A stretch of 63,893 bases of DNA, the filler included, from Dimargaris cristalligena (lineage: Eukaryota): NCBI GenBank assembly GCA_003614675.1. It is 3 parts of 3 records of this genome, joined end to end, with 100 filler letters (N's around TTAATTAATTAA, not from the genome) between each part and the next. Parts side by side here need not be neighbours in the genome. Positions count along the whole stretch, not along the records: positions 46,393 to 63,893 come from ML002798.1; 2 more parts are not named here. One strand, 5' to 3'. Both the position numbers and the translations under genes were made by a program. A model generated the notes under the pieces. That model ran no database searches and had not been told where the DNA came from. It worked only from the letters and a program-made list of their open reading frames with translations. Positions 11,740 to 63,893 of this stretch are shown piece after piece (the stretch's first letter is position 1; each line of letters begins with the position of its first letter).

Positions 11740-14379
11740 TTAGCGCTGAACCTTGAATTCAGGGGAGGTCCAGGTATCATATTGGGTGGCATTGTTCTTG
11801 TCACCGAAGGGACGGAGAGCTAACACTTTGAGGCGGTAAGTCCCATTGGCCATTTTAGTCAAGATGGAACCAGACTTAGTGTAACCAGTCCAGGAGAAAT
11901 CAGTATTGGGCAGATAGGACTTGAAGTTCTGGGGTACGTTGGTCAACCAGCCCGAGACAACGGCCGTGTACACCTTGTTGGCAGAGTTGAGGACCTGGAT
12001 AGTGATCTGTTGGGTAGGGTGGTCTTTGACAATAGTCACAACAGGCACGTTGTTGACCATATCGTAGGAGAGAATATTGCCGACTAAGGGCGCGTCAGTT
12101 CCGTTTGAGGCGCGCAGCATGGGGAAGGCATCGGTGTTGGGGCGAAGAATCGGCACAGTGCGGTAGTCACCCTTGAAGCCCAGGTAGGGAAGCGTGATAC
12201 CCTGAGTGGCATTGGCCCCGGAAGCATTCTGGGGAGTGATACGCACGAAACCACTGTAGACCCAGTGTTCAATGTCGGGAAGGTTGGGCAGAGTGAAGGT
12301 GGTGGTGAGACCCACGGAATCACCAGCCGCCAAACTCATCGTGGTCTGGCTTAGAATCACCGGGGCGGCGGTGTTGCTGGTGCGGACGGTATCGGCCAGG
12401 CTCTGGTTGGCCCAGTGGGCGGACACCGACTGAGCACTCCACATCTCCAGGTTCAGGGTAATGGCGGTCTTGCCGCGATTCTTGATGGTGGTGTCCCGGT
12501 TGGTCACATCGCCGTCGAACGAGCCATTCAAGGTGTCATTAAGTGCAAAGCTGTTAACGGAGGAGATGATGGGGGTGGTGATGGCGTTGTACACATTCAA
12601 CAGACCCGCGCCCTGGCGGGCGACGGTCTCGCAGCCAGTCTTGCTGGGGCAGTACGGGGTGGAGCTCTGCATGAGGAGGGCCTTGATATCCTTGGGGGAG
12701 ACCTTGGCTTCCAACATTAGGGCCACAGCGCCAGTCACATAAGCGGTAGACATGGAAGTACCGGAGTTAATAGTGTACATACCGCGCCAGGCGGGAACGG
12801 TGGAGTAGATCTTGTCACCGGGCGCACCCACTTCGGGCTTAATGTTAAGCTCAGGATCAGGGCCGTAGGAGGAGAGGTCAGCTTGGATCGAACCCGGGGT
12901 CGGGTGGTTTACGGCATGGAAAGAGGAGTCGCTGGTGAGCGTCACGGGCGTAGTGGCAGCGCTAATCTTGCTCCGCAGCCAAGCGGCATCTTCGGGGGTA
13001 ATGGGAGCCACCGAGATGGGGTGGTAGCGTCGGATGAAGTAGTAGGTAGGCAGCCCTGGAAAACCTTGGTCCAAAATGACAGCCAGAGCCCCGGCGGAGG
13101 CGGCGGCATCGACACGGTCGTCGTCATCGCAGTTCATGGTAAAGTCCAGGAGAACAATCTTGCCGGTAAGCGCACCGGGCGAGTAGCCGGCGCACCCGTA
13201 GTAGGCACCTTCCAGATCAGGCACGCGCGCCACGGGAGTGTCGGTGTACACAAGAGGAGGGAAGGGAGCGCCAAAATCAATACCGCGCATCAGTTCCTTG
13301 GTTTCACCGGCATTGATCGTCATGGTGTTGTAGTAGATCTGCTCGGAGTTGTAAGCGGTTACTGACAGGGCACTACTTCCAGTAGCCGGTGACGAGGGCG
13401 AGTAGAGGCTTTCGTGACCCAGGTTACCGTTCGCACCCACTGTAATAATGTTATACTGCCTGAAGAGAATATCCGCAACGGCGGCACTGGGGGCCTGGGC
13501 CCAGGAACCGGGCTCGCCGGCGGACACATTAATGACCTGCATGCCATCTTGTTGGGCGGCCAACATAGCCTGAACAATAATATCCTCACCAACGTCATTC
13601 GAAACACAGCCAAAGACCCGGTAAATACCGAGGGTAGCATTGGGGGCCACCCCTTCGAAAACGCCATCCTTACCCGTCGCAATACCGGCGACATGGGTAC
13701 CATGGCCGATACAGGTATCCTGTGGGTCATCATCAGGAACGGCCACGGGATTCAATACCCCGTCATAATCGTCACCAACCAGGTCCTGGCCGTAAGCCAC
13801 GCGGCAACCGGCGGTTTTGTAGCAGTTCCCGAAAGCGGGATGGGTGTAGTCCAGACCGGTGTCGATGAAGGCGATTTTGACTCCAGCACCAGTGAGATTG
13901 AGCTCCGAGCGGGCCCGGCTCACGCCACCCTGTTTCAAGGTAAGATTGGGCAGAGCCGCGGCCGCAGGGGGGCCACCTTGGCGGCGCTGCAGCGTCGAAC
14001 TGGCACTGGTTGTTGAGTTCCAGAAGCCTTCGAAACCGCCGTCCAAATAGGTGCGGGGGCCCTTCAGGAGGCGCACGGGCCAGACTTCAGCGACCTGTTC
14101 CAGGTCGGCCAGGACGTTGGGCGTGTCTTCTTCCAGGGTTACGGACATGCCGGTGAAGGCGCCTTCGTAAACCATATTGACATCATAGCCGACCCCCGAT
14201 TCGTCCAGGGACGCTGACATGGCTTGGGCGGACATGGCCATACGGGATTTGGGGTGGCGGTTGAACTGCACAATGTATCGGTTCGGGATAAACACGGGGG
14301 CGGGGGTGATAGCGTCCACAGCGGTCGCTGCGGCGGCGAGGGCTAACAACCCGTAAAGAGAGACCCACTTTGACTGCAT
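11740..14379 (-). CDS. Secreted S8 subtilisin-like protease (propeptide + S8 + PA insert + C-terminal Fn3-like region), 879 aa, intronless
   Basis: Signal peptide; triad motifs FIDTGLD, GHGTHVAG, SGTSMS; oxyanion Asn in GANGN; KPEVGAPG; PA-like GKIVLL...AGALAVIL. Confidence 0.95.
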   Translation of the reverse strand: MQSKWVSLYGLLALAAAATAVDAITPAPVFIPNRYIVQFNRHPKSRMAMSAQAMSASLDESGVGYDVNMVYEGAFTGMSVTLEEDTPNVLADLEQVAEVWPVRLLKGPRTYLDGGFEGFWNSTTSASSTLQRRQGGPPAAAALPNLTLKQGGVSRARSELNLTGAGVKIAFIDTGLDYTHPAFGNCYKTAGCRVAYGQDLVGDDYDGVLNPVAVPDDDPQDTCIGHGTHVAGIATGKDGVFEGVAPNATLGIYRVFGCVSNDVGEDIIVQAMLAAQQDGMQVINVSAGEPGSWAQAPSAAVADILFRQYNIITVGANGNLGHESLYSPSSPATGSSALSVTAYNSEQIYYNTMTINAGETKELMRGIDFGAPFPPLVYTDTPVARVPDLEGAYYGCAGYSPGALTGKIVLLDFTMNCDDDDRVDAAASAGALAVILDQGFPGLPTYYFIRRYHPISVAPITPEDAAWLRSKISAATTPVTLTSDSSFHAVNHPTPGSIQADLSSYGPDPELNIKPEVGAPGDKIYSTVPAWRGMYTINSGTSMSTAYVTGAVALMLEAKVSPKDIKALLMQSSTPYCPSKTGCETVARQGAGLLNVYNAITTPIISSVNSFALNDTLNGSFDGDVTNRDTTIKNRGKTAITLNLEMWSAQSVSAHWANQSLADTVRTSNTAAPVILSQTTMSLAAGDSVGLTTTFTLPNLPDIEHWVYSGFVRITPQNASGANATQGITLPYLGFKGDYRTVPILRPNTDAFPMLRASNGTDAPLVGNILSYDMVNNVPVVTIVKDHPTQQITIQVLNSANKVYTAVVSGWLTNVPQNFKSYLPNTDFSWTGYTKSGSILTKMANGTYRLKVLALRPFGDKNNATQYDTWTSPEFKVQR

Positions 14380-14527
14380 GCTCGGGATAGTTGATTAAGG
14401 GAAATGTGATATTGGGGAGAGTAATTAATATAATAATAGCGCGACTAGATATAAGTTGGATATATAAAGTCGGGATTGGGCATAACAAAATGAACTCGCT
14501 CTAATATTAATGGGCAAGAACAAGTTA

Positions 14528-21340: not shown

Positions 21341-21510
21341 CAAATTCTGGTCAATTAATTTCATCGCTAGCTCGTCTTGTTATGAAATAGTCTACTTCTC
21401 TCTACAAACCAATCATCTAATCCCCATTTATCTATCGGTGCTACTATTCCTAATTACTTTAAATTTATACCCCTATAATTCTTCTATACCTTAACCCACC
21501 CACCTTCAAT

Positions 21511-23036
21511 ATGCAATCCAAGTGGGTTTCCCTCTACGGTTTGTTGGCGCTCGCCGTTGCGGCGACTGCGCAGAATGCCACTGACACTGACCCAGGCACG
21601 GACTCCAGTGCCGCGGGGTACATTCCGAATCGCTACATTGTGCAATTCAATACGGACCCCACGTCTGCCATGGCCCTGTCGACCGAAGACATGACGGGTA
21701 CTTTGGACCAAGCCGGTGTGGGTTACGATATCAACATTGTCTACGATGCCCCCTTCAGCGGTATGTCTGTGACCCTGCAGGATGATAACCCCGAAGCGCT
21801 TGCCAATCTCGATAACGTGGCGGACATCTGGCCCGTGCGTCTCCTGAAGAGTCCCCAGACCAATTTGGCCTCCAACTTCGAAGGTTTCTTCAATTACAAC
21901 ACCACCGATAGCTCGGCTCTGCATCGCCGCCAGGGTGGTCCCCCGGCCGCCCCGGCTCTGCCCAACCTTACCTTGAATCAAGGTGGCGTAAGCCGCGCCC
22001 GTTCGGAGCTCGGTCTCACTGGTGCCGGTGTCAAAATCGGGATCATCGATACAGGTTTGGACTACACCCATCCCGCTTTCGGAAGCTGCTTCAAGACCTC
22101 CGGTTGCCGTGTCGCTTACGGCCGGGATCTGGTTGGTGATAATTACGATGGTGTGCTGAACCCCCATCGCGTTCCTGATAACGACCCGCAGGATACCTGT
22201 ATCGGCCACGGTACCCATGTGTCGGGTATTATGGCGGGTAAGGACGGTGTATTCGAAGGCGTGGCCCCCAAAGCTACCCTCGGTATCTACCGAGTCTTCG
22301 GCTGCCTTTCGAACGATGTCGGCGAGGACGTGATCATTCTGGCTATGCTGGCCGCTTTTGCTGACGGCATGCAGGTGATAAACGTGTCGGCCGGTGAGCC
22401 CGGTTCCTGGGCCCAGGCCCCTAGTGCAATTGTCGCTGATATTCTCTACAAGCTGAGTGGTGTCATCACCATCGCCGCCAATGGTAATCTGGGCCACGAA
22501 AGCCTCTACTCGCCCTCTTCCCCCTCGACCGCTCGCAACTCCATGTCGGTGACGGCGTATAATCCCGAGCAGATCTATTACTACACCATGACTATCANNN
22601 NNNNNNNNNNNNNNNNNNNNNNNNNNNNNNNNNNNNNNNNNNNNNNNNNNNNNNNNNNNNNNNNNNNTGCGTGTCCCCGATCTGGATGGTGCCCACTACG
22701 GGTGCGCCGGCTACTCGCCCGGTGCACTGACCGGCAAGATTGTTCTCCTGGACTTTACCATGAACTGTGATGACGACGACCGTGTTGATGCCGCCGCCGC
22801 CGCCGGGGCTCTGGCTGTCATTCTGGACCAAGGTTTCCCAGGTCTGCCTACCTACTACTTCATCCGTCGCTACCACCCCATCTCAGTGGCCCCCATTACC
22901 CCCGAGGACGCCGCTTGGCTGCGGAGTCAAATTGATGCTGGTACTGGGCCCGTGACGCTCACCAGCGACTCCTCCTTCCATGCCGTGAATCACCCAACTG
23001 CCGGTCAGATCCAAGCTGACCTCTCCTCCTACGGCC
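21511..23036 (+). CDS. Secreted S8 subtilisin paralog; partial (internal N gap 22598-22667, 3' end missing)
   Basis: Closely similar to 11740-14379: MQSKWVSLYGLLALA, IIDTGLD, GHGTHVSG and the PA domain; homology stops at ADLSSYG (23036), before the catalytic Ser. Confidence 0.9.
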
Positions 23037-51458: not shown

Positions 51459-52431
51459 GAAGATTGCGGCTCTAACTATCCGCAGCCAGCGTCATATATA
51501 TTGGGTAATAGGGAGGAGAGGGGGATGTCAGTCAGGAATCAACAAACAAAGGAGTGGAAATTGGGGGAGGCGATTCATTCAACAATCATTATTGGGTCTG
51601 TGCAGCGTATGAAAATCTAGAAAGTGATTGGGGTGGGGGGCTTATTCACGGGTTAAGTTGGCGAATAGCAAGCAGCTCAGCCTGTGGTACCTTGCTGCTG
51701 CTGCTGCTGGGGAACTTCACATGCTGGAGAAGTGACCCGCAGTGGAGGAAGGGTTGAAGATTTAGGCTGGACACGTGGCGTACTATATATATAACCCCTT
51801 GGAAAAAGACAACCCCATTCTCGCTTTTGTATTTCTCCTCTGTAAGCCCTTCTACCAAGGAGGTATAGGTATAGGAATGCAGCTTAGGCTGAGGCTGCTT
51901 TGGGAGAGCTATACAACTAGCATTAGCATTAGCTATAGTTAATTAATCAGTTAGTTAGTTAGTCACCACAGGAGGCGCTGGCCCTTCTCATTCGCATTAT
52001 CGGCCATTCCGCACTCCATGGTGGCGGGCAGAGCCGATCCACTCAGTATGGAATAATGATGGATGGGGAGGAAGTCATTCCGGCTCATTAAATGTATGCA
52101 TGCATGTATAGTGACCACTGCCGAGGCATGTGGCGTTACACCGCCCTTCCCCCCATTTCCCGGCCCCGATAGTTAAGGTGACCCATTCATTTTTTTTCAG
52201 CCTAGTTTTCCCGACTTTTCCTACCCACCCTTTACTACTATTTACTAGTGCTACTGCTTCCCTTCCCCTCTTCCTTTAGCTTGCCTCTCGCCCCGCATTC
52301 CGCTTGGTGTTCTGTTCCTCTCCTCTAACCCATACCATACCCTTCCACCCGAACTCTCTTCGTTCGCGGACTATTTGCCCTCCCTCTCCCCACTTTGGAC
52401 CATCTGTCCGCCCTCCTTATTATACTTCACC

Positions 52432-54756
52432 ATGGCCACCGACGGAGCGATACCCACCGAGTTATTCCACCATACCTACCACCATGACTCCGCCAAGCAC
52501 TACCAGGCCGCCAAGGCCGTGTTTGAGCAGTTCGCCAGTGTCCAGGAGGAAGGCGAGCGTTTCATGACCTCCACCGATTTCGCCCGGGCCCTGTGGTCCC
52601 TGGACCCCGCCACCCAGTCGCTGCAGCAGTCCCCCTCCTCCACCAGCCCGAGTTTTAGCTCCGCCCAGTACGACATCCTATTCCGCATGGCCGATGCCCG
52701 GAAACGGGGCCGCATCTCCATTGCCGACTTCCAGGCCTTCCAGCTGCTACTATCCCGCCCCTATGCCGAATTCGAAATGGCCTTTAAGCTGCTCGATACG
52801 CAGGGTCGGGGTACCCTGAGTTTGTCCGACTTTAAGCAGATTGTGACTGCTACCGAACCAACGAGTAGTACCACTACCCCAAGTACCACCCCGTTGCACC
52901 TGGATCCCGCTTGGCTCAGTCTCTATGCCCGCCGCTCCAGTCCGGCGGCCGAAGGTGAAATCGACTACCACGTGTTCGGGCAAATGATCCACGAGTTGCA
53001 GGTCCAGCGTCTCCAGCACAGTTTCCGGGAGGCCGATACCTCGGGCTGCGGGGTTATTAGCCCCGAGGCCTTCCAGCGCATCGTCTACGGTTTCGCCCGT
53101 GAAAGAGTATCTCCCCTGGTCCTGGAGCACATTCCCACTCTGGCCCGACTAGGCGGAGGCTCCTCCCCTCCCCCCTCTGCCCTGGCTACCTTGGAGACGG
53201 AAGCCGTCGCTGCCGCCGGTCCGCTGACCTACCCGTTGTTGGTGGCTCTGTACCAGCTGGTCCAAAAGACCGACTGGGTGGAAGTCATTCTGATCCAAGC
53301 CGCCCAGCGCCATCCCCAGGGCCGCGTTACCCGCGACTCCTTTTTGGCCACCGCCGCCCAAGTCACCCGGGCGCCCCTGCTGACCCCTCTCGAAACGGAC
53401 GTACTCTTCCACTTGGTCGAAGTGGAAGCCGTGAGTGAGTCAACTCCCCTGGGCTCGGTCCAACCCAGCCAGGGCTTCGCATTGGCCGATTTCCGTCGGT
53501 TGCTCGATCCCACCTGGCGTAAACCCATTCCCTCGGAAATTCGGGAAGCGACCACCACCCTAGCCACCACCACTCCTGTCGCGGCTGAAACTAGCCCCTA
53601 CTGGGGGTGGGCAATGGGCGTATTCGAACAGGCCTACATGTTCGCCCTCGGGTCCATTGCCGGGGCCGTCGGAGCTACTGTGGTCTACCCCATCGATTTA
53701 GTCAAGACCCGCATGCAAAACCAGCGCTCGGCGGTGGTGGGGGAATTGCTGTACAAGAACAGTATGGACTGCTTCCGCAAGGTAATTAAAAACGAAGGTC
53801 CCAAGGGTCTCTACCGGGGTCTGGCCCCCCAACTGGTGGGAGTCGCCCCCGAGAAGGCCATCAAGCTCACCATGAACGACTTGGTGCGTAAATACACCAC
53901 CGATGCCAAAACGGGCCAGATTCCCCTGTGGGCCGAAGTGCTGGCCGGGTGTACGGCCGGTGGCAGTCAAGTGGTGTTCACCAACCCTTTGGAAATCGTC
54001 AAGATCCGCCTCCAGGTGCAGGGCGAGATGCTCAAGTCCGTGGACGTGGTACCCCGCCAGTCGGCCATTTCCATCGTGCGCCAACTCGGGTTAGTCGGGC
54101 TGTACAAGGGTGCGGGGGCCTGTCTCCTGCGGGACATTCCCTTCTCGGCCATCTACTTCCCGGTCTACGCGCACATTAAAAAGGACGTCTTCCTCGAATG
54201 CCCCGGGGTCAAACTGGGCATCTGGCAACTCCTGGTGGCTGGTGCGTTGGCCGGTATGCCCGCCGCTTATTTAACTACCCCGGCCGACGTGATTAAAACC
54301 CGTTTGCAGGTCGAGGCCCGGCAGGGTCAAACCGCTTACAACGGTATCCGGGACGCCGCCCGGAAAATCTACGCTGAGGAAGGGTTCCGGGCGTTCTTTA
54401 AAGGTGGAGTGGCCCGTATTTTCCGATCCTCCCCCCAGTTCGGTACCACGCTCATGGTCTACGAAGTCCTACAACGGTACTTCCCCTTTGCAGCGGCGGG
54501 CTCGGAGACTTCGCCAGGAGGGAGTGGTGCACTACCCCCGCCTGTGGCCTCCCCTTCCAACCTGGCCCACCGTCCCCTGACTAAACCCGGCGGCGGCGGT
54601 CTCCTGTCACCGACGCAAGCCCTGAATATCTCCCAGCAGGCCCCTTTGGCCTACCTGCGCATGCGTAATGCGGTCAAGTTGGTTCAGGATGTGCAGTACA
54701 GTTTCGGCAAGCTGCCGCCCGTCCCTACCACCACTGCACCCCCTTCACCGCAGTAG
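52432..54756 (+). CDS. AGC1: Mitochondrial aspartate/glutamate carrier (aralar/citrin-like), intronless
   Basis: Degenerate EF-hands; carrier signatures [67 protein letters not shown]. Confidence 0.95.
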
Positions 54757-55398: not shown

Positions 55399-56625
55399 CT
55401 AGTCCGATTTGGACCCGAATGTTTCCGGCATTGACGACAAATCGAAAAGGATGGCCCGGGATTCTTGGTAAACGAATTTGAGGATAAGCAGGCTTGGCAA
55501 AATGTTCTAGAGGGCCCGAAACAACCATGAGAAAAAAACGGCGAGGAAACCGGATATATTCAAATTAGTGGGGCTAGGTGTGTGTGTGTGGGGGGGGCGG
55601 CGTTGATTTATGGGGAATTACTTGGGAAGTTGGTAAAAAACCCCGGTGGGACATTTAATCAGCCAGAATAATGTAGAATGTGACTTACCCTGAAGATAAC
55701 TACTATGGAAGGATCATTTTCAAGCATCAGGGCCAGGTAGGGTTTGACTTGATACATCGTGATGGCTTCATTGATGACGATATCGTTAATGTCTATTTTA
55801 TCGATAAACCGAACCGATGCGGTGCCCAGTATGGTGCTCGAGGTCAGTTGGAAGCCGACCTGACGGATCACTAGCAGTTTTTCTGACCGGGGCAGGGCGG
55901 GGTGGTTGAGTGTGGTGAATCAAGTATACAGCAGGGTGCAAGATATGATAACTAAGTAAGTACATTTGGAAACCACGATGGAAACAACAACAATAATAAT
56001 AATAATAATAACCTCCTTTGAGTCAACGACATTTTGCCAAGTAGGTTGATCAAATCGTAGCGGGTTAAATTCCCGGAATAATGGAGGGCTAAGAGTACAA
56101 AATTTTCACACTACTGCTATGCCTACCTTGTCGTATCCGGGTACATAATGATCGGAGCCAGAGAAAAGCTACGCCGTACCAGGGAAGCATATACCCTGAC
56201 TGCCAGTCAATTTGGAGCAGCGGACCCAAGCCGATTAAAAGGGCCAGGGTTATAAAGGCGTAGTCAAGTCCATTGAGCCATGGGCCGGGAGTCTGGACGA
56301 TGAATTCAATCACGTCGGGGGAGTGGACGTGATATTCGAATATGCCCTGGTTGGAATCGAACGGCGCGGGGGTCTCCTGGGTAGTAGTAGGGCAATGTGG
56401 GACAAGGGGGGAGGGGGCTAGACCCGGAAGATCGGCGGTGAGCCTAGTAGTGGTGGTCAGGTTAGGAGAAGCCTTGGCAATGGATGAGGTACGCCTTCGG
56501 CCAATCCGCCTGACCTGGGCCGGACTGCGTAGGGGAGGCGGAGTAACAATGACAGATGCCGGCGTGGAGGGCCCCTGTGGGGGTAGGGAAAGTTTGGATG
56601 GGGTCCGTGGCGTGTGGCGGCCCAT
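55399..56625 (-). CDS. GPI15: GPI-GlcNAc transferase subunit PIG-H/Gpi15, 3 exons
   Basis: Exons 56625-56127, 55882-55689, 55506-55399; two hydrophobic segments, then EKLLVIRQVGFQL...INDIVINEAI...YLAL...VVIF-R-NILPSL. Confidence 0.8.
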
Positions 56626-57259
56626 GTAGATGATAAAACTAGGGATATATGGGACTACAATAGTATATGAAGAAGGGGTATTATAGTTGGTGATGAGGTT
56701 AGAGGCAAGCTATGAATAGAGTAGAAAGAGGTTGGTGAATGCTGGCCATGCATTCACAACATGGCAAAACAATGGGTCGGAATTTCAGATGGGTTGTATA
56801 ATTTATAGCGCCCATTAGACTGAGGCTGAGGGAGGCATGCCTGGTATCAAAAGATTCCCCTGTTCATCCATTAATTTGTGGTGCAGGTTAATCCTAGATT
56901 CCACTCTAATATTGCACTGCTTCTAGCACGCTTTTTATTATTTTATTTTTCACACCGCCCAAGGCTTCCATAAAAATAGACCTGTATGCCCGTCTGCACC
57001 AATTACACCCGAACGTTTTACATGGGCGCACCTCGATCTATTGTATTTTAAGCGTTGGTCTAGCTTGATTTAGTGTGTCTAATTACCTGGTCGGTGTGCC
57101 TTGATTATATTAACCGGTAGTCTAGACCGGCCAGGAGATATAGGTAGGGATAACCTTGCAGTAACCCCCCATTCACCTAGTAGTGATCAACCAGTCCATT
57201 CCAATTAATCGAGCACTGGTATATACGGTATATATCAAGTGATATTTAAGGCGCGAGCC

Positions 57260-57291: not shown

Positions 57292-60102
57292 ACACCGTTT
57301 CCCGGTCTATTAGCCGAATTAGCCCCTGACATCCCCCTCCCATGGAACAGCAGCACCCTTGGTCTAATGCCGGTAAACCCGATTCAATCTGTTAATAATT
57401 GCACATATATACCTTTTTTTTTTGGATTATGTACAGCTACATAGCTATTTCACAATCACAACTTACACGACGGACCTTTGTTTGCTAGTGACATACCCTA
57501 CCCATAGCATTCTATAAAGTACAATACGGCCTTGCCGGGGTATGGGAGAGCATAGCAATTCGATGGCTATTCATGATGCATAGTACCCGCCGGGCTTCAC
57601 GGGTATACTTTGAGGGCGAACTCAGTGCCGATTGGACTGGGGTAGCCCCGTTTCCAAAAGCACCTCTTGCCCACGATTTTCCGCCCACAGACCTCCAGCG
57701 CGTTTTTATTTACTTCTTGTATAATAATGGCCCGTTTTTAGACGGACGTGTCTAGAACAGGACGGGGCGGGGAAGGAAAAGGCCGAGCGCACGCGTCGTA
57801 CTGTGAAGGCCAACTACCCCGTTCAGCACCCAATGGCCAAGGACTAAAGAAGAAGGTTCCTGAGGGGGGAGAAAAACACATAAAACAATAGGGAATGTCG
57901 TTTCATCCTCAGCAGACGTGGGGTTGCTGGGAAGGAATGTTTTACAGTGGTGGACTTGCAGGAGTGGGGAAATGACTGGTGGTGTTATTTCCCCAGTCCA
58001 TACAGTGAAGGGTAATGTATTCCACATTGGGGCCATGGGATATATACCCAAAAAAGAAGGTACAGAGGTCAAAGGAAAAACTAAAACATTTGCGATACGA
58101 AATAAGAACCGACGGTCTTCCTAGTCGTGCCGGGGAGGGCACCGCACGGACTGGCTGTGATTTTGCGAGGCTGTAAGCATCGTTGGATTGGGTTTTGGGA
58201 ATCCGTTCTTCCTAGATCCACCGTATTAGTAGTTATAGAGAGGGGCGGTGAGCTTCGCTAGGGTGGGGTTTGTTTACATTAGCGAGGGGAATGCGGTAAT
58301 CCGGCGCATTGATTGGCTGGATGGACGTTGCCCACATCCCAGCGGATCTTTGTTTACGTTTTGGGAGCTGGACCATCCCTTGATGGAATAGTGGAGCTGG
58401 TGGATGAAAAGCAGCCATACTCCCTTGATTGAGCAACCATTTTTACACCACAAGTGGGAGGGATGTGCTACAGACGTAGCACAGGCTGGAGGGATGAGGA
58501 ATAGGCCACTTTGACAGATAGATACTAAAAAAACACAGCGGAGTTTAATTTGCGGATTGGAGGGATGAGTACAATGCGAGGAGGCATTGTGGTGGGCGGG
58601 TTGAATCAACGGGGCGGGGTTTTATATTAATAGATCAGATGGATGGAAAGGAATCGGGGTTACACCCTGGAGGACGGCGCATACGGAGGGATAAACACAC
58701 CCATACACCCAGACTTACGTTGGTTGGCTGGCAATGCGGGAGTGGACTGATTTAAATGTCAGGGAACACAACCATAGACCCCCCCTTTGTAATGGGCCGA
58801 ATAACTCGGGATGCATGTTTGAAATGGGGCCAACAGTTCGGCCATGTAGGGATCCTGCAGCTGGTCATTCAGTCCAGGCCCTGTCAATTGGCAGGAGGGC
58901 GTTCAACAGGCAATGCATGGAATGGGAAGGTCGGTTTCTCTAGGCTAATGGCACTTGTTCGATGCCAGTGCATGTGGGTAGGTAAGTTTAATGAAAGACG
59001 GCTATAGAGTTGAAGAGGGAGAGAGTCGGTTGTTTACGTTTGGGGGGAAACCCTTCACCACACGCGTATATGCACTATTTGACCCATTCTTATACACTGC
59101 CCTCCTCCGCTGCCGTTTTTTCTTCAGGATCAGCTTTCTCTCTCTCTTTTGCCTTCGCGACTCGACTTCCACCAGTCGCCCTTCTTTCCCTCCCTACACT
59201 CGCGCATACATTTATAGGCCCCGGCTGACACGCGTGCGTGGAGGGCCTTGACTGAGAGTATTTGGTGCTTCGGCGAGATTCCTTCTGGCTCTTTCTCTCT
59301 TCTCTCTCCCGTTGTTTTATTTGGTTCTTTCCGTTCGACTTGGTCCTCTTCTTCCCGAATGTTTCCCCCTTTACAGCTATAACCCCCTCGTCTTCGTTTC
59401 TTCCGTCAAAGTCAATCCCCTCGACGCTTCCAAACTCCGACTCACCCCCTTTTTTTATCGAGTCACTGTCCTTCTCGTTCCCTGCTCCATCCGGTTCGGC
59501 AGTCCCCGCTCCCTTCCCGTAAACTCTAAGCCACTGCGTCCGGAACACATATACCCCCTCGACACAACCCGATTCTGCTTCCTGAGCCACACGCGCCGCA
59601 GCCCCCTCCACCCTATACCCACTCCCATCTCTCCCTCCCGGTTGGTTAGACCTGGTGGCTCTATCTTGGACTCACGCCGTCACCCTTTTCTTGTGGCCGT
59701 GTTTCCTCTAAAGTTGGTCTGACCCGCTCGCGAAGCCCTCTCTCTCTCTCTCTCTCCCCTCCTTTCTGACCATAGCGGCTTGGTGGCCCTAGACTCTAGT
59801 CCGTAGAGCGGGTTGTATATAGTGTGGCACATATCGGGTCCTTTTTTAAAAACGCTTTAGCTGATTTCCCTAGCTTAGTCCGCCCCGCTCTATCTCTCTT
59901 ATTATTATACCTTGGTTTAGCTTTAGTTATAGTTTTATCACTCCCATTGCTTATTATTATCATTAGTATCATTGCCAGCACATCCCCCTTATCAGTATCA
60001 ATTCTCTATATATCCCCCTGAGGTACATTGATTCCCCTCCTGTTATTCCTATCCACTTGCTGCTATTCAGGCCGCCTTCCTCCACAGTCCCTGGTCTAAA
60101 CC

Positions 60103-63100
60103 ATGTCCACCGCCCAGGGAAAACCGGCGTCGGACAAGGCGTCCCAGGCCCCATTCTCGTATGATATTCGAGTAACCGGTGATATCAGTCCCTACGCTAA
60201 CGCCGATGACGGCCGTACCACCCGCGTATCCGTCAAAATCACCAGCAATGATGATCTGGTCAATATCCTTCAGGCCCGCAAGGCCGGGGGTGCCCATCGA
60301 CCCCACAGCCTGGCTAACCCTCGGGAACTGCTCAATGTGGACATCAATGCCCGCGTAAACCCACTTACCGAAGATCGGGATCCTAGTCCTAAGCGCCACA
60401 CGAGCGAAAAAGGCTCCGTGCCCTCCTCCCCAATGAACGTTCCAGTCTCCAATGGCTACCGGGCCTACACCGCTACTCCCGTTTCGTCTACCGTGAACAG
60501 TGGGGGTAGCACTCAGTCCACACCATTGGCTATCGCCGCCACCGCCGCCAACGAGGACGCCAACGACCGTGCCATACACCGTTTGTGGAGTCGGTCTCCG
60601 CCCAACCAAAGTCGATCCGAGTTGTCCGAGGTGATGGAACGGACCGCCGGTCAGATCTTCCCCAACGAATCGCAGGCCTTCTCCCCTCTTCGCTCCGAGA
60701 TGGAACTGGATGAAGTCATGCGGCGGACCGCTGGTATGCCCGAGTCCGCTTTCCGTAGCGGGACTGCATCGAGCCTTTACGAGGAATATCGTTCTCCGCC
60801 CTCCCGTCCCGCTCGCCCCCCTAGTAAAACCTTTAGCTCCCACCAACCCCCTCCCTCCAGCCGCATGGGGGGTAGTATTTACCAACATCTTTCCCCACGG
60901 GCCGCCTCTCCGCTACGCAGTTCCAACCGGATTCAAGTCATTGAGGAGGACCCCCACCACTACCCGGCCCCGCTGTTGCTCTCCCGCAGCCTGTCTCCCC
61001 CTCCCACCCTGGGCCGCCGATCGGGCTCGCTGGCCCCTCCTAGTCCCGCCTTCGCCCTTAAACCGCGCAGTGCCACGCCCCCACCGGTAATGGAGCAGGC
61101 CTGGTACATGCAAAGCAGAGCCGGGGGCGAACATGAGGAAATATCCCGCCCCGGATCGGTCCAAAGTCAGGTTAGTTTGGCATCCAGCTCCACAACCACG
61201 ACGACCACTACCACACATTTAACCACCACCACCACCACCACTCACGATGCGGCCGTCATGATGCCGCTGCACACCCACCCGTCCACGCCCATGACCACCC
61301 CCGCCCGGGGTTCCGCTCCCATGTCTACCGGCCCCGCCCCCGATCGTCGGGGTGGCTGCAATACCCGTGGGGACTCTTCGTTCCTAAGTGCCTCCACATC
61401 CAACTTTTCCAGCGACTCGTCTAGTTTCGTGGGTTACCAGGACTTCAACCGAGTGCATATGGCCCATATGCAGCGGTCCCCCAAAAACTGCTTTGAGGTG
61501 TGCTATCTGTGCAATAAGCGCATCTCCAGCGGGGACCGGGTGTTACCCCACGACCGCCCAATTCACCGCGGTTGTCTACGCTGTGCAGACTGCCGCAAGC
61601 TACTCAGCGTAGACAACTACTCCAGTGTGGAGGATGTGTTTTACTGCCAGACTCACTACGACCTGCATAACCCCATTGTTACGACTACCCTGTCCTCCCG
61701 CATTGGCGGTGGCCACAAGTCCACCACCCGACCATCGCACCTGACCCTGTCGTTCAACCCCCATACCATCGCCTATTCTGATTCGAACGCAGGACATCCT
61801 AGTTTCGACAGTAGCACCTCGTCCCTCGACCTCAACGCCTCCGTGGCTTGCAGTTGCACCTGTGCCTGCATTTACTGCCCCATCAGTTTGTACGGCATCA
61901 ACGGCTCCGACAACGGTGATTACCCACAGAGTTGCCATTGCGCCTGCCACTGTCCCGTCTGCGTGCGAGCCCGCGGAATTCACTCTAGCCTAGGCACTCC
62001 CCCTCCCTGGACACCCTGCGCCGATAAATCCATCATTATCCACCCTCCCTCGGCCCGTTCGACGCCCTTCCCGGGGGCCCAACGGTCCGGCGGATCCATG
62101 TGCCAGTCGTTCGCACGATCGGAAACCCCTTACCACGCGCTGGACCGATCCATCAACCCCGAAGCCGCCTGCCACTGTGCATGCCAGTGTTCGTTCTGTC
62201 CCAACGCTCTGTATGGCCTGGTGTCCACGTCCGAGGAATTTGTCTCGCATCCCTGCCACTGTGATTGCTCTTGCTCCATCTGTATGCGGGCCCTTAATAT
62301 CTACGATAATTTCGGGGCCCCGCCGCCCCGGACCAAGACCCCCGCGGGCTGTCTCAACCCCGGCGAAAATACCCCCTGTCTGCTTTTTGCCCGTACCGGG
62401 GGTTCCACCGATGCCAGTGTCTTTGAGTGCCCCTGCCCCAATTGCCACGACCAGCGGACCAAGGACGCCACACTAATTGAACGCATCATGGCCTATTATT
62501 ATTCCAGGGCCATGTACGACTCTTCCTTTTACCTCTCGCCCAACGACAAGGAATATATTCGCCTGATTTGTCCCTGCTGCCACTGCCGGCGTTTCCGGGA
62601 GTCCAGCTTTAAGCCCACCGGTAGCCCCGCGCTGAAACCCCAGGATAACGTGGCCCCACCTAAGGCCTCGCCGACTCCGTCTAAGCCGGCCCCGACTCCT
62701 GCGCCCCCTTCCCCAACCCCTCCCTCCAAGTCGGCCGATAAGTCGTTCGCGCCTTGCCCGTGTCCTAACTGCCAGACCTCCGTTGGTCCCGTTCCCGCCG
62801 CTGGTAATGGCAAACCGCCCAGTCAACCCGGGTCCAAGAATGGTAATACTAGCAAAAGTGGTACTCCTCCCCCGGCCTCCAAAGCTCCAAGTGCGGCCAA
62901 ACCCGCTGATTTCGGCGCCTGCCCATGCCCTAACTGTACCAGCGGGACCCCCAAAGTGGCCCCCGCCGCCAAACCAGCTTCTCCGCCACCACCACCGTCG
63001 GCCTCGTCTAAAGCCAGCTCACCCCCGAAAGACTTTGGCGCTTGTCCGTGCCCGAACTGCACTAGTGGATCACCCGTGGCGGCCCTTGCTGTCAAACCAG

Positions 63101-63893
63101 CATCTCCGACCCCGCCAGCAGCCTCGCCCAAAGCCAGCTCTCCCTCGAAGGACTTTGGCGCTTGTCCATGCCCGAACTGTACCAGCGGGACCCCCAAAGT
63201 GGCCCCCGCCGCCAAACCAGCTTCTTCGCCACCACCACCGCCGGCCTCGCCCAAAGCCAGCCCATCCCCGAATGACTTTGGCGCTTGTCCATGCCCGAAC
63301 TGTACCAGTGGAGCGCCCGCGGCGGCCTCTACTGCCAAGCCAGCATCTCCGACTCCGCCGCCGGCTTCGCCTAAATCCAGTTCTCCCCCGAAGGACTTTG
63401 GGGCTTGCCCGTGCCCGAACTGTACCAGCGGGACCCCCATAGTGGCCCCTGCCGCCAAACCGGTCTCCCCCCCGCCGGCCTCGAAGGCCCCCAGCGGTCC
63501 GAAGAAGACTCCGCCTCCCTCGGCCTCTCCTCCGCCCAAGGATTTTGGCACTTGTCCCTGCCCTAACTGCACATCCTCTGGATCTGCCAAACCGGCTACC
63601 CCTGCCCCCTCGCCACCGGCAGCCACTCCGGCAAGTCCCAAGCCTTCCAAAGCCCCTTCGCCGCCGCCATCCAAGGTCCCACCCGCGGATTTTGGTGTAT
63701 GCCCTTGTCCTAACTGTCAGACCAATCCGCCACCCGCTTCTAAACCCTCTCTGGCCTCGCCTCCCGCTAAACCCGCCGCCTCCTCGTCACCACCACCGGC
63801 TGCGAAGGCTCCCAGCAACCCTCCCAAGGATTTTGGCAAGTGTCCCTGCCCTAACTGTGACTCGACTTTTACCGGTAAGGTCCCGTCGAGAGT
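60103..63893 (+). CDS. Large LIM-domain protein with Cys-rich modules and Pro-rich repeats (at least 1263 aa, runs off the window)
   Basis: Manual translation from CCATG at 60103 has no stop to the window end; LIM Cx2Cx17Hx2Cx2Cx2Cx17Cx2H at 61501-61656; Cys modules; DFGxCPCPNC repeats. Confidence 0.88.
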   Translation, partial: MSTAQGKPASDKASQAPFSYDIRVTGDISPYANADDGRTTRVSVKITSNDDLVNILQARKAGGAHRPHSLANPRELLNVDINARVNPLTEDRDPSPKRHTSEKGSVPSSPMNVPVSNGYRAYTATPVSSTVNSGGSTQSTPLAIAATAANEDANDRAIHRLWSRSPPNQSRSELSEVMERTAGQIFPNESQAFSPLRSEMELDEVMRRTAGMPESAFRSGTASSLYEEYRSPPSRPARPPSKTFSSHQPPPSSRMGGSIYQHLSPRAASPLRSSNRIQVIEEDPHHYPAPLLLSRSLSPPPTLGRRSGSLAPPSPAFALKPRSATPPPVMEQAWYMQSRAGGEHEEISRPGSVQSQVSLASSSTTTTTTTTHLTTTTTTTHDAAVMMPLHTHPSTPMTTPARGSAPMSTGPAPDRRGGCNTRGDSSFLSASTSNFSSDSSSFVGYQDFNRVHMAHMQRSPKNCFEVCYLCNKRISSGDRVLPHDRPIHRGCLRCADCRKLLSVDNYSSVEDVFYCQTHYDLHNPIVTTTLSSRIGGGHKSTTRPSHLTLSFNPHTIAYSDSNAGHPSFDSSTSSLDLNASVACSCTCACIYCPISLYGINGSDNGDYPQSCHCACHCPVCVRARGIHSSLGTPPPWTPCADKSIIIHPPSARSTPFPGAQRSGGSMCQSFARSETPYHALDRSINPEAACHCACQCSFCPNALYGLVSTSEEFVSHPCHCDCSCSICMRALNIYDNFGAPPPRTKTPAGCLNPGENTPCLLFARTGGSTDASVFECPCPNCHDQRTKDATLIERIMAYYYSRAMYDSSFYLSPNDKEYIRLICPCCHCRRFRESSFKPTGSPALKPQDNVAPPKASPTPSKPAPTPAPPSPTPPSKSADKSFAPCPCPNCQTSVGPVPAAGNGKPPSQPGSKNGNTSKSGTPPPASKAPSAAKPADFGACPCPNCTSGTPKVAPAAKPASPPPPPSASSKASSPPKDFGACPCPNCTSGSPVAALAVKPASPTPPAASPKASSPSKDFGACPCPNCTSGTPKVAPAAKPASSPPPPPASPKASPSPNDFGACPCPNCTSGAPAAASTAKPASPTPPPASPKSSSPPKDFGACPCPNCTSGTPIVAPAAKPVSPPPASKAPSGPKKTPPPSASPPPKDFGTCPCPNCTSSGSAKPATPAPSPPAATPASPKPSKAPSPPPSKVPPADFGVCPCPNCQTNPPPASKPSLASPPAKPAASSSPPPAAKAPSNPPKDFGKCPCPNCDSTFTGKVPSR
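62908..63858 (+). repeat. Coding tandem repeat, 120-147-bp units encoding DFGxCPCPNC plus Pro/Ala/Ser/Lys linker
   Basis: Motif starts at 62908, 63031, 63151, 63274, 63394, 63541, 63688 and 63829. Confidence 0.92.

Follow-up and report, generated by a model that had tools for sequence, protein, structure and literature searches.

An uncharacterised LIM-domain protein of the Dimargaritales with two undescribed types of cysteine module

The window analysed here, a stretch of 63,893 nucleotides (filler included) joined from three records of the Dimargaris cristalligena assembly GCA_003614675.1, ends within the gene of a large LIM-domain protein located in the part derived from ML002798.1. Already present in the databases, the protein is uncharacterised and specific to one order. 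It includes two undescribed types of Cys module: a 10-Cys module, present in two copies, and a short CPCPNC motif ("bead") repeated along the C-term part. LIM proteins are well known; the new elements are these two module types and an N-term region, none of which matches a Pfam family or a solved structure. The family is moreover confined to one early-diverging mycoparasitic order. The descriptive part of this account (anatomy and conservation) is held as virtually certain. The functional reading that we tentatively favour, with a little less than an even chance as a whole, is that of a scaffold or tether carrying metal-thiolate sites. Residue numbers refer to the window protein, coordinates to the whole stretch (Table 1), and the orthologue alignment comprises four sequences.

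Table 1. Features of the LIM-protein gene and of its product
Feature	Coordinates	Strand	Basis
In-frame TAA stop, two codons upstream of the ATG	60097..60099	+	read directly in the sequence
Partial coding sequence, 1263 codons, no intron required, truncated 3' at the window end	60103..63891	+	colinear with orthologues
Conserved N-term region, residues 16-87 (APFSYDIRVTGDI...NVDINARVNP)	60148..60363	+	52 invariant positions, 4/4 sequences
Ser/Pro/Thr-rich low-complexity region with conserved short motif islands, residues ~100-460	60400..61482	+	composition, alignment
LIM domain, residues 467-519	61501..61659	+	Pfam PF00412
10-Cys module 1, residues 583-623, CxCxCxCxxCPxxLYG - 12 residues - CxCxCxCxxCVRA	61849..61971	+	alignment, composition
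10-Cys module 2, residues 690-730	62170..62292	+	internal duplicate of module 1
Conserved region, residues 750-832: C750, C759, ECPCPNC (776), helical-looking stretch, ICPCCHC (823)	62350..62598	+	invariant positions
Bead array, nine F-x-x-CPCPNC motifs, residues 885-1252, unfinished at window end	62743..63858	+	motif scan
Most recently duplicated part of the array	62914..63461	+	DNA repeat, period 120; two-bead 243-nt super-repeat, 88% matches
GG dipeptides	60286-60291, 60502-60507, 60868-60873, 61123-61128, 61351-61356, 61705-61710, 62089-62094, 62398-62403	+	orthologue alignment

Gene structure and sequence support

A listing of open reading frames (ORFs) with open ends returns a frame that begins with an ATG at 60103 and runs for 1263 codons on the + strand, with no stop up to the window end. 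This agrees with the sequence-only reading, which had described an uninterrupted frame of at least this length without a stop in the window. In the alignment, the predicted N-termini of the orthologues start 15-23 residues upstream of the same conserved APFSYD motif; they begin at the same place, and the start at 60103 is therefore well placed. The GC content is 0.595 between 60 and 62 kb, compared to about 0.41-0.53 in most of the window; the 52-54 kb interval and other coding stretches resemble the gene in this respect. A six-frame scan of the whole window finds the CxCxxC and bead motifs confined to the frame of the gene. Antisense ORFs overlap this conserved frame, and the largest of them has no Pfam match. 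The antisense ORF 60067-60912, which lies opposite the conserved frame and has no Pfam match, was dropped.

Contigs of four DNA runs (X1 to X4) were compared with positions 59500-63893. Run X2, from a different study, agrees with the sequence except for 6 single-letter differences and shows no insertion or deletion. Its short-read contigs break inside the repeat, leaving 63205-63273 uncovered, while X1 covers 63196-63303. Beyond position 63890, X1 and X2 share 30 identical letters that are open in the frame of the gene, so that the DNA continues past the window; in X2 this sequence belongs to a contig of 11,456 bases. The last three bases of the window (63891-63893) differ from the X1 and X2 contigs. 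The contig end probably corresponds to an assembly break in or adjoining the repeat.

Some of these observations could be taken as signs that the frame is not a functional gene but a chance frame in a GC-rich repeat, an assembly artefact or a pseudogene. The contig ends within a tandem repeat, no RNA run is among those listed, and in one Logan contig of run X1 the C5 run at 60947-60951 is longer by one C (after 60950), which would shift the frame. However, this extra C is not found in X2, X3 or X4, and the orthologue alignment crosses the site in frame. There are 1263 stop-free codons, orthologues with invariant cysteines occur in four named species, and the bead motif varies synonymously only. 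We consider the chance of this explanation to be negligible. The stretch is, as judged from the sequence, the 5' two-thirds of a real gene translated in this frame.

Relatives and taxonomic range

A word-indexed protein search recovered the window's own protein and three fungal proteins, all three named 'hypothetical protein'. These are the orthologues of Tieghemiomyces parasiticus (59% identity, a 920-amino-acid (aa) partial sequence), Dimargaris verticillata (44% identity, 1675 aa) and Dispira simplex (46% identity, 1731 aa). A further search of this kind, aimed at shorter proteins with the bead array, found none. A cluster look-up extended the set with a full-length protein from Tieghemiomyces (1943 aa) and another copy from Dispira simplex (1764 aa). 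Database names of the family are limited to 'hypothetical protein' or 'LIM zinc-binding domain-containing protein', and a full-text literature search for 'CPCPNC' gave only one unrelated paper.

An exhaustive HMMER scan with residues 1-880 as single query against 1.84 billion representatives yielded 286 matches at E<=0.001. The best 150 are considered here; the remaining 136 all have E above 2.6e-5. The closest relative is the Tieghemiomyces parasiticus protein (59% identity over 854 residues, E 2.8e-272), and Dimargaris verticillata shows 43% identity. Only four of the best 150 match outside residues ~353-549: the protein itself, those of Tieghemiomyces and Dimargaris, and a 268-aa fragment from Dispira parvispora. 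The other 146 are confined to this interval, that is to the LIM domain and, for some, the adjacent low-complexity stretch. On the best 150 of 286 matches, Dimargaritales are the only order known to have the family, and the window's organism therefore belongs in this order or close to it, nearest to Tieghemiomyces.

The sequence-only reading had supposed a lineage-specific protein and proposed a jackhmmer-type check of its distribution. Run as this single-sequence scan, the check upholds that view, since the matches outside the LIM domain among those 150 all come from Dimargaritales. It had also failed to recognise the architecture, and rightly so: the N-term region, Cys modules and beads match no Pfam family or PDB structure, and no full-length match to a characterised family was found in Pfam, in the PDB or in the HMMER scan.

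Tieghemiomyces parasiticus is represented by three entries and Dispira simplex by two, each set within a single 90%-identity cluster; the bead number differs between the two Dispira simplex copies. Such near-identical copies, two or three to a species, are consistent with duplicated or non-haploid assemblies, and a non-haploid state of these assemblies is suggested in PMC9866270.

Anatomy of the full-length orthologues

Tieghemiomyces, Dimargaris and Dispira proteins align colinearly with the window protein over the N-term region, the LIM domain, both 10-Cys modules, the ECPCPNC...ICPCCHC stretch and the F-x-x-CPCPNC array. The full-length orthologues, which measure 1675-1943 aa, have in addition a third 10-Cys module and another LIM domain. 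An F-x-CPCP-x-C motif with a Tyr after it closes their array. Then come a conserved 'KQGG', the third 10-Cys module with a longer loop, a conserved helical-looking stretch (VDVG.DG...RSP.GSEWLTERI.DNY.RTV.EERQRRLN), the second canonical LIM domain and the tail NPF..L.RE..SLEQRF.ETE. The two LIM domains lie at about residues 450-467 and 1494-1757. The C-term half of the Dispira protein matches Dimargaris only. The 1943-aa Tieghemiomyces protein has 12 array beads and 570 residues from the start of the last motif (the regular expression counts some non-array motifs there). By this comparison, about one third of the protein is not encoded in the window. The complete protein would thus comprise about 1700-1950 residues, of which some 570 or more would lie beyond the window.

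LIM domain

Residues 467-519 match Pfam PF00412 with an E-value of 5.3e-8 and 33.4 bits, above the gathering cut-off of 22.9, and the orthologues also pass it. A regular expression recovers the ligand pattern C-x2-C-x17-H-x2-C-x2-C-x2-C-x17-C-x2-H from residue 467, which agrees with the LIM spacing C-x2-C-x16-23-H-x2-C-x2-C-x2-C-x16-21-C-x2-(C/H/D). The eight ligands (C467, C470, H488, C491, C494, C497, C515 and H518) are invariant in the four sequences. A LIM domain of this family is expected to bind two Zn(II) ions. By profile match and ligand spacing, the window protein is a LIM-domain protein, with one canonical LIM domain in the window as the sequence-only reading had it. The closest PDB matches are FHL1 (2cur, E 1.9e-6), EPLIN (2d8y, E 3.8e-6) and CRP/MLP (2o13, E 1.2e-4); as these E-values are only modest, the domain is not assignable to any LIM class. 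In the ESM Atlas, residues 430-900 retrieve LIM clusters only (scores <=0.87).

N-terminal region and low-complexity linker

Conservation is highest at residues 16-87, where 52 positions are invariant. These residues have no Pfam match at E<=10; the best PDB match of the N-term region, a pectate lyase (E 0.37), is at chance level, and the ESM Atlas returned no usable match for residues 1-100. The AF2 model of these 100 residues, built on the 4-sequence alignment, has a predicted local distance difference test score (pLDDT) of 47.6, too low to use. Residues ~100-460 are rich in Ser (17.5%), Pro (11.7%) and Thr (9.4%). The disordered Ser/Pro/Thr-rich N-terminus described from the sequence therefore holds for residues ~100-460 and not for the first ~90 residues, the most conserved part.

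A 19-residue Kyte-Doolittle scan of the window protein detects neither a signal peptide nor a membrane segment: the highest mean is 0.11 in the first 40 residues, which confirms the earlier claim that a signal peptide is lacking, and 1.6 over the protein as a whole. From the lack of a signal peptide and membrane segment, and from the LIM domains, which are Zn modules of intracellular proteins, the protein is probably intracellular and cytoplasmic. A secreted mucin or cell-wall protein was rejected in view of the missing signal peptide and the LIM domains. A profilin track of the formin FH1 type was also discarded (only two runs of at least four prolines per protein), as were regular clusters of cyclin-dependent kinase sites, the [ST]-P-x-[KR] sites being few and not conserved in number (8, 2, 4).

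Several short motifs occur in the linker. The sequence R-S-L-S-P-P-P (60985-61005, residues 295-301), located in a conserved island where R295, S298, P299-301, L303 and R305 are invariant, resembles what we take to be a mode-1 14-3-3 site; R-S-x-S-P-P is found in three of the four aligned sequences. An acidic-helix-like motif is duplicated, at 60616-60654 (residues ~172-184, SELSEVMERTAG) and 60697-60738 (~199-212, EMELDEVMRRTAG); both copies are kept in Tieghemiomyces and Dimargaris and not in Dispira. All orthologues are Thr-rich in the interval of the threonine runs T8-H-L-T7 (61195-61260, about residues 365-386), though Dimargaris does not keep the run as such.

10-Cys modules

The two 10-Cys modules share the consensus CxCxCxCxxC-P-x-x-L-Y-G, about 12 residues, then CxCxCxCxxC-[VM]-R-A. 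Their cysteines are located at residues 583/585/587/589/592 and 611/613/615/617/620 in module 1 and at 690/692/694/696/699 and 718/720/722/724/727 in module 2. All 20 are invariant in the four aligned sequences, while the intervening residues vary freely. With 41% identity to each other (E 8e-18), the modules represent an internal duplication. These mapped positions confirm the two modules listed in the sequence-only reading. The local Cys content reaches 21-22%. Neither module has a Pfam match at E<=10, and a profile of the two retrieves nothing in the PDB. Sub-cut-off Pfam matches on the remaining pieces were judged to be chance Cys-pattern matches: YmcF-like (19.9 bits for a cut-off of 27), the weaker Transpos_assoc, GBBH-like_N and Cytochrom_C552, and GFA on the bead array (E 2). 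The AF2 model of residues 550-880, which rests on the same alignment, has a pLDDT of 33.7, too low to use; it draws helices in region 750-832 at low confidence. The strictly alternating invariant cysteines would fit the thiolates of a metal cluster on one face of two short strands.

The same alternation allows a different proposal, in which cystine ladders in the modules and intermolecular disulfides between beads make up a cross-linked structural material, forming an order-specific solid body (septal plug or haustorial). Alternating cysteines on two strands are the pattern of cystine-ladder peptides, and the halves of module 2 are modelled as paired β-strands, at a pLDDT below 50 that deserves little weight. 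Dimargaritales possess order-specific globose bodies in their septal plugs, soluble in 2-3% KOH, as well as haustoria, according to PMC3734964, and the gene family shares this order-level distribution. However, the coincidence is weak given that many genes are order-specific, and the septal-plug or haustorial location, attractive taxonomically, is a conjecture. Moreover, LIM domains require their cysteines in the reduced form, and the cytosol is a reducing environment. We regard a disulfide-linked material as quite unlikely.

CPCPNC bead array

CxCxxC motifs occur 15 times in the window protein, compared to 0.17 on average and never more than 3 in 2000 shuffles, which bears out the earlier mention of many such motifs. 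Ten are CPCPNC (residues 776, 885, 940, 981, 1021, 1062, 1102, 1151, 1200 and 1247), of which nine form the array. They are spaced 40-55 residues apart by Pro/Ala/Ser/Lys spacers of 27-42 residues. From residue 836 on, the protein consists of 28.7% Pro, 15.7% Ala, 15.0% Ser and 9.1% Lys, with 40 Lys and Arg for 11 Asp and Glu. The two 81-codon copies of the super-repeat (Table 1) differ by 14 synonymous and 14 non-synonymous codons. The nine fixed residues of the bead motif D-F-G-x-C-P-C-P-N-C are unchanged in the eight DFG-type units, where eight of these nine positions vary synonymously (two to four codons each).

Such an array could also belong to a high-capacity metallothionein-like buffer, a giant Cu/Zn store or detoxifier whose modules and beads soak up metal. 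It grows by recent duplication, and the bead number varies by species (at least nine array beads here and 12 in Tieghemiomyces). The CxC and CxCxxC(P) motifs and the tandem growth with spacers recall CnMT1, CnMT2 and TmMT as presented in PMC4755600. However, the overall Cys content is only 5.0-5.6%, against 23% in TmMT, and the protein exceeds the longest metallothionein of that paper 7-8 times in length; the 7-Cys unit CXC-X5-CXC-X3-CXC-X2-C of metallothionein is absent. The two LIM domains and the strongly conserved N-term region would be superfluous for a metal sponge. A buffer of this kind appears unlikely.

Conserved [RK]-x-G-G motifs

The window protein contains eight GG dipeptides (residues 62, 134, 256, 341, 417, 535, 663 and 766). 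All eight are also GG in at least three of the four orthologues, and most are located in otherwise poorly conserved linkers. Seven have R or K at position -2 (binomial chance ~4e-7 given 9.3% K+R). They are about 75-130 residues apart, with one between almost each pair of conserved modules. Four more aligned GG sites are common to Dimargaris and Dispira in the C-term half. The [RK]-x-G-G motif may serve as a hinge, for binding or for processing.

The last possibility corresponds to a precursor cut at these sites, which would free separate LIM, Cys-module and bead-array products. Their conservation and their position between nearly all modules are in its favour. However, one of the motifs lies inside the conserved N-term region, the motif may as well serve as hinge or binding site, and we know of no protease that reads [RK]-x-G-G; ubiquitin-like tails have the basic residue in another register. 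Such processing is very improbable.

A possible metal-thiolate scaffold

The tentatively favoured reading is that of a cytoplasmic scaffold or tether. It is close to the sequence-only reading, which is supported in part: the cytoplasmic location is probable, and cross-linking by metal or disulfides and elasticity are putative. A single LIM domain near each end would dock the protein to partners, most plausibly associated with the cytoskeleton, and the 10-Cys modules would be small metal-thiolate knots. The Cys patterns end in CxCxxC(P), like the units of the modular fungal Cu-thioneins described in PMC4755600. The most likely metal would be Zn(II), in a cytosolic protein already Zn-dependent through its LIM domains. 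As each bead has only three thiolates, a four-ligand Zn site needs a ligand from elsewhere, which might come from another bead of the same chain, from another chain or from a partner. Beads pairing in cis would cause compaction and beads pairing in trans cross-linking. The array may in this way act as a multivalent 'sticker-and-spacer' segment whose compaction and cross-linking are set by the metal or redox state.

Several points weigh against this scaffold. Metal binding, cross-linking and a cytoskeletal partner are all only predicted, and both AF2 models (pLDDT 33.7 and 47.6) are too low to use. A complex prediction with two copies of residues 930-1000 and two Zn gave no answer (score 0.00), which has no bearing on binding either way. 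In the full-length orthologues the two LIM domains stand alone, more than 1000 residues from each other. A tri-thiolate would also suit Cu(I), complete within one bead, and CxC or CxxC pairs can form disulfides; Zn is for these reasons only the default choice. Finally, no RNA run is among the sequencing runs listed and expression is itself predicted.

A bolder version of the scaffold would see the array as a metal- or redox-switchable polymer of trans-completed CPCPNC sites, which Zn/Cu loading or oxidation would gel reversibly into a solid body, and the 10-Cys hairpins as a new metal-cluster or cystine-ladder fold. It would build a Dimargaritales-specific structure, for instance the septal-plug globose bodies that dissolve in KOH or a part of the haustorium, possibly after processing at [RK]-x-G-G. 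We consider this version improbable. Dimargaritales are haustorial parasites of other fungi, and the cell biology of their haustoria and peculiar septal plugs is not known to have been described at the molecular level. If the beads are metal- or redox-dependent cross-links on flexible spacers, the protein would represent a natural switchable intracellular polymer with a new metal-binding fold. If not, it would be an orphan scaffold protein of local interest.

Other features of the window

Two frames of the subtilase family (Peptidase_S8), one of them with a PA domain, are located at 11740-14394 (- strand) and 21463-22770 (+ strand). High subtilase numbers are reported for Dimargaritales in PMC9866270. 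The nearest large frame upstream of the LIM gene (52249-54756, + strand) encodes three Mito_carr repeats and EF-hands; its product looks like a calcium-regulated mitochondrial carrier of the aspartate/glutamate type. Among the ORFs checked, none of at least 150 codons with a known family lies in the ~3.3 kb that separate the LIM gene from the 56089-56709 frame.

Comparison with known systems

Alternating cysteines, CPC and CCxC recall the theta-defensins (cystine ladder) and the redox or copper motifs CPC of Mia40 and CCxC of Cox17, a likeness of pattern only. These are small and act in oxidising compartments.

The modular Cu-thioneins CnMT1 and CnMT2 of Cryptococcus and TmMT of Tremella also exhibit CxC and CxCxxC(P) motifs and tandem-amplified Cys units with spacers, as set out in PMC4755600. 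According to the same paper they are 122-257 aa long with 23% Cys, whereas the Dimargaritales family reaches 1700-1950 aa with about 5%, and their 7-Cys unit CXC-X5-CXC-X3-CXC-X2-C (PMC4755600) differs from the CxCxCxCxxC x2 and CPCPNC units found here. Unlike them, the window protein carries LIM domains and conserved non-Cys regions. Metallothioneins are small, contain ~20-30% Cys and form metal-thiolate clusters with Cu(I), Zn or Cd; the 1263 residues contain 5.2%, and 21-22% is reached only in the two modules. By unit pattern and Cys content, the window protein is not a metallothionein.

Among LIM proteins, FHL1, EPLIN/LIMA1 and CRP/MLP provide the best solved-structure matches, over only ~55 residues. 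Zyxin, paxillin, FHL and the fission-yeast Pxl1 carry tandem (C-terminal) LIM domains; in contrast, a single LIM domain is present in the window protein, and the pair in the full-length orthologues is separated by more than 1000 residues. Binding to strained actin needs three or more tandem LIM domains with linkers of 7-8 residues, as stated in bioRxiv 10.1101/2020.03.06.980649. Lacking such a tandem, the window protein is, on its domain arrangement, outside the strain-sensing class. Nor does it show similarity to the zyxin/paxillin class outside the LIM domain among the best 150 of 286 HMMER matches. It nevertheless resembles that class, Pxl1 included, in having a canonical LIM domain and long low-complexity stretches rich in proline and in lacking a catalytic domain, and the role expected by this likeness would be that of an intracellular adaptor.

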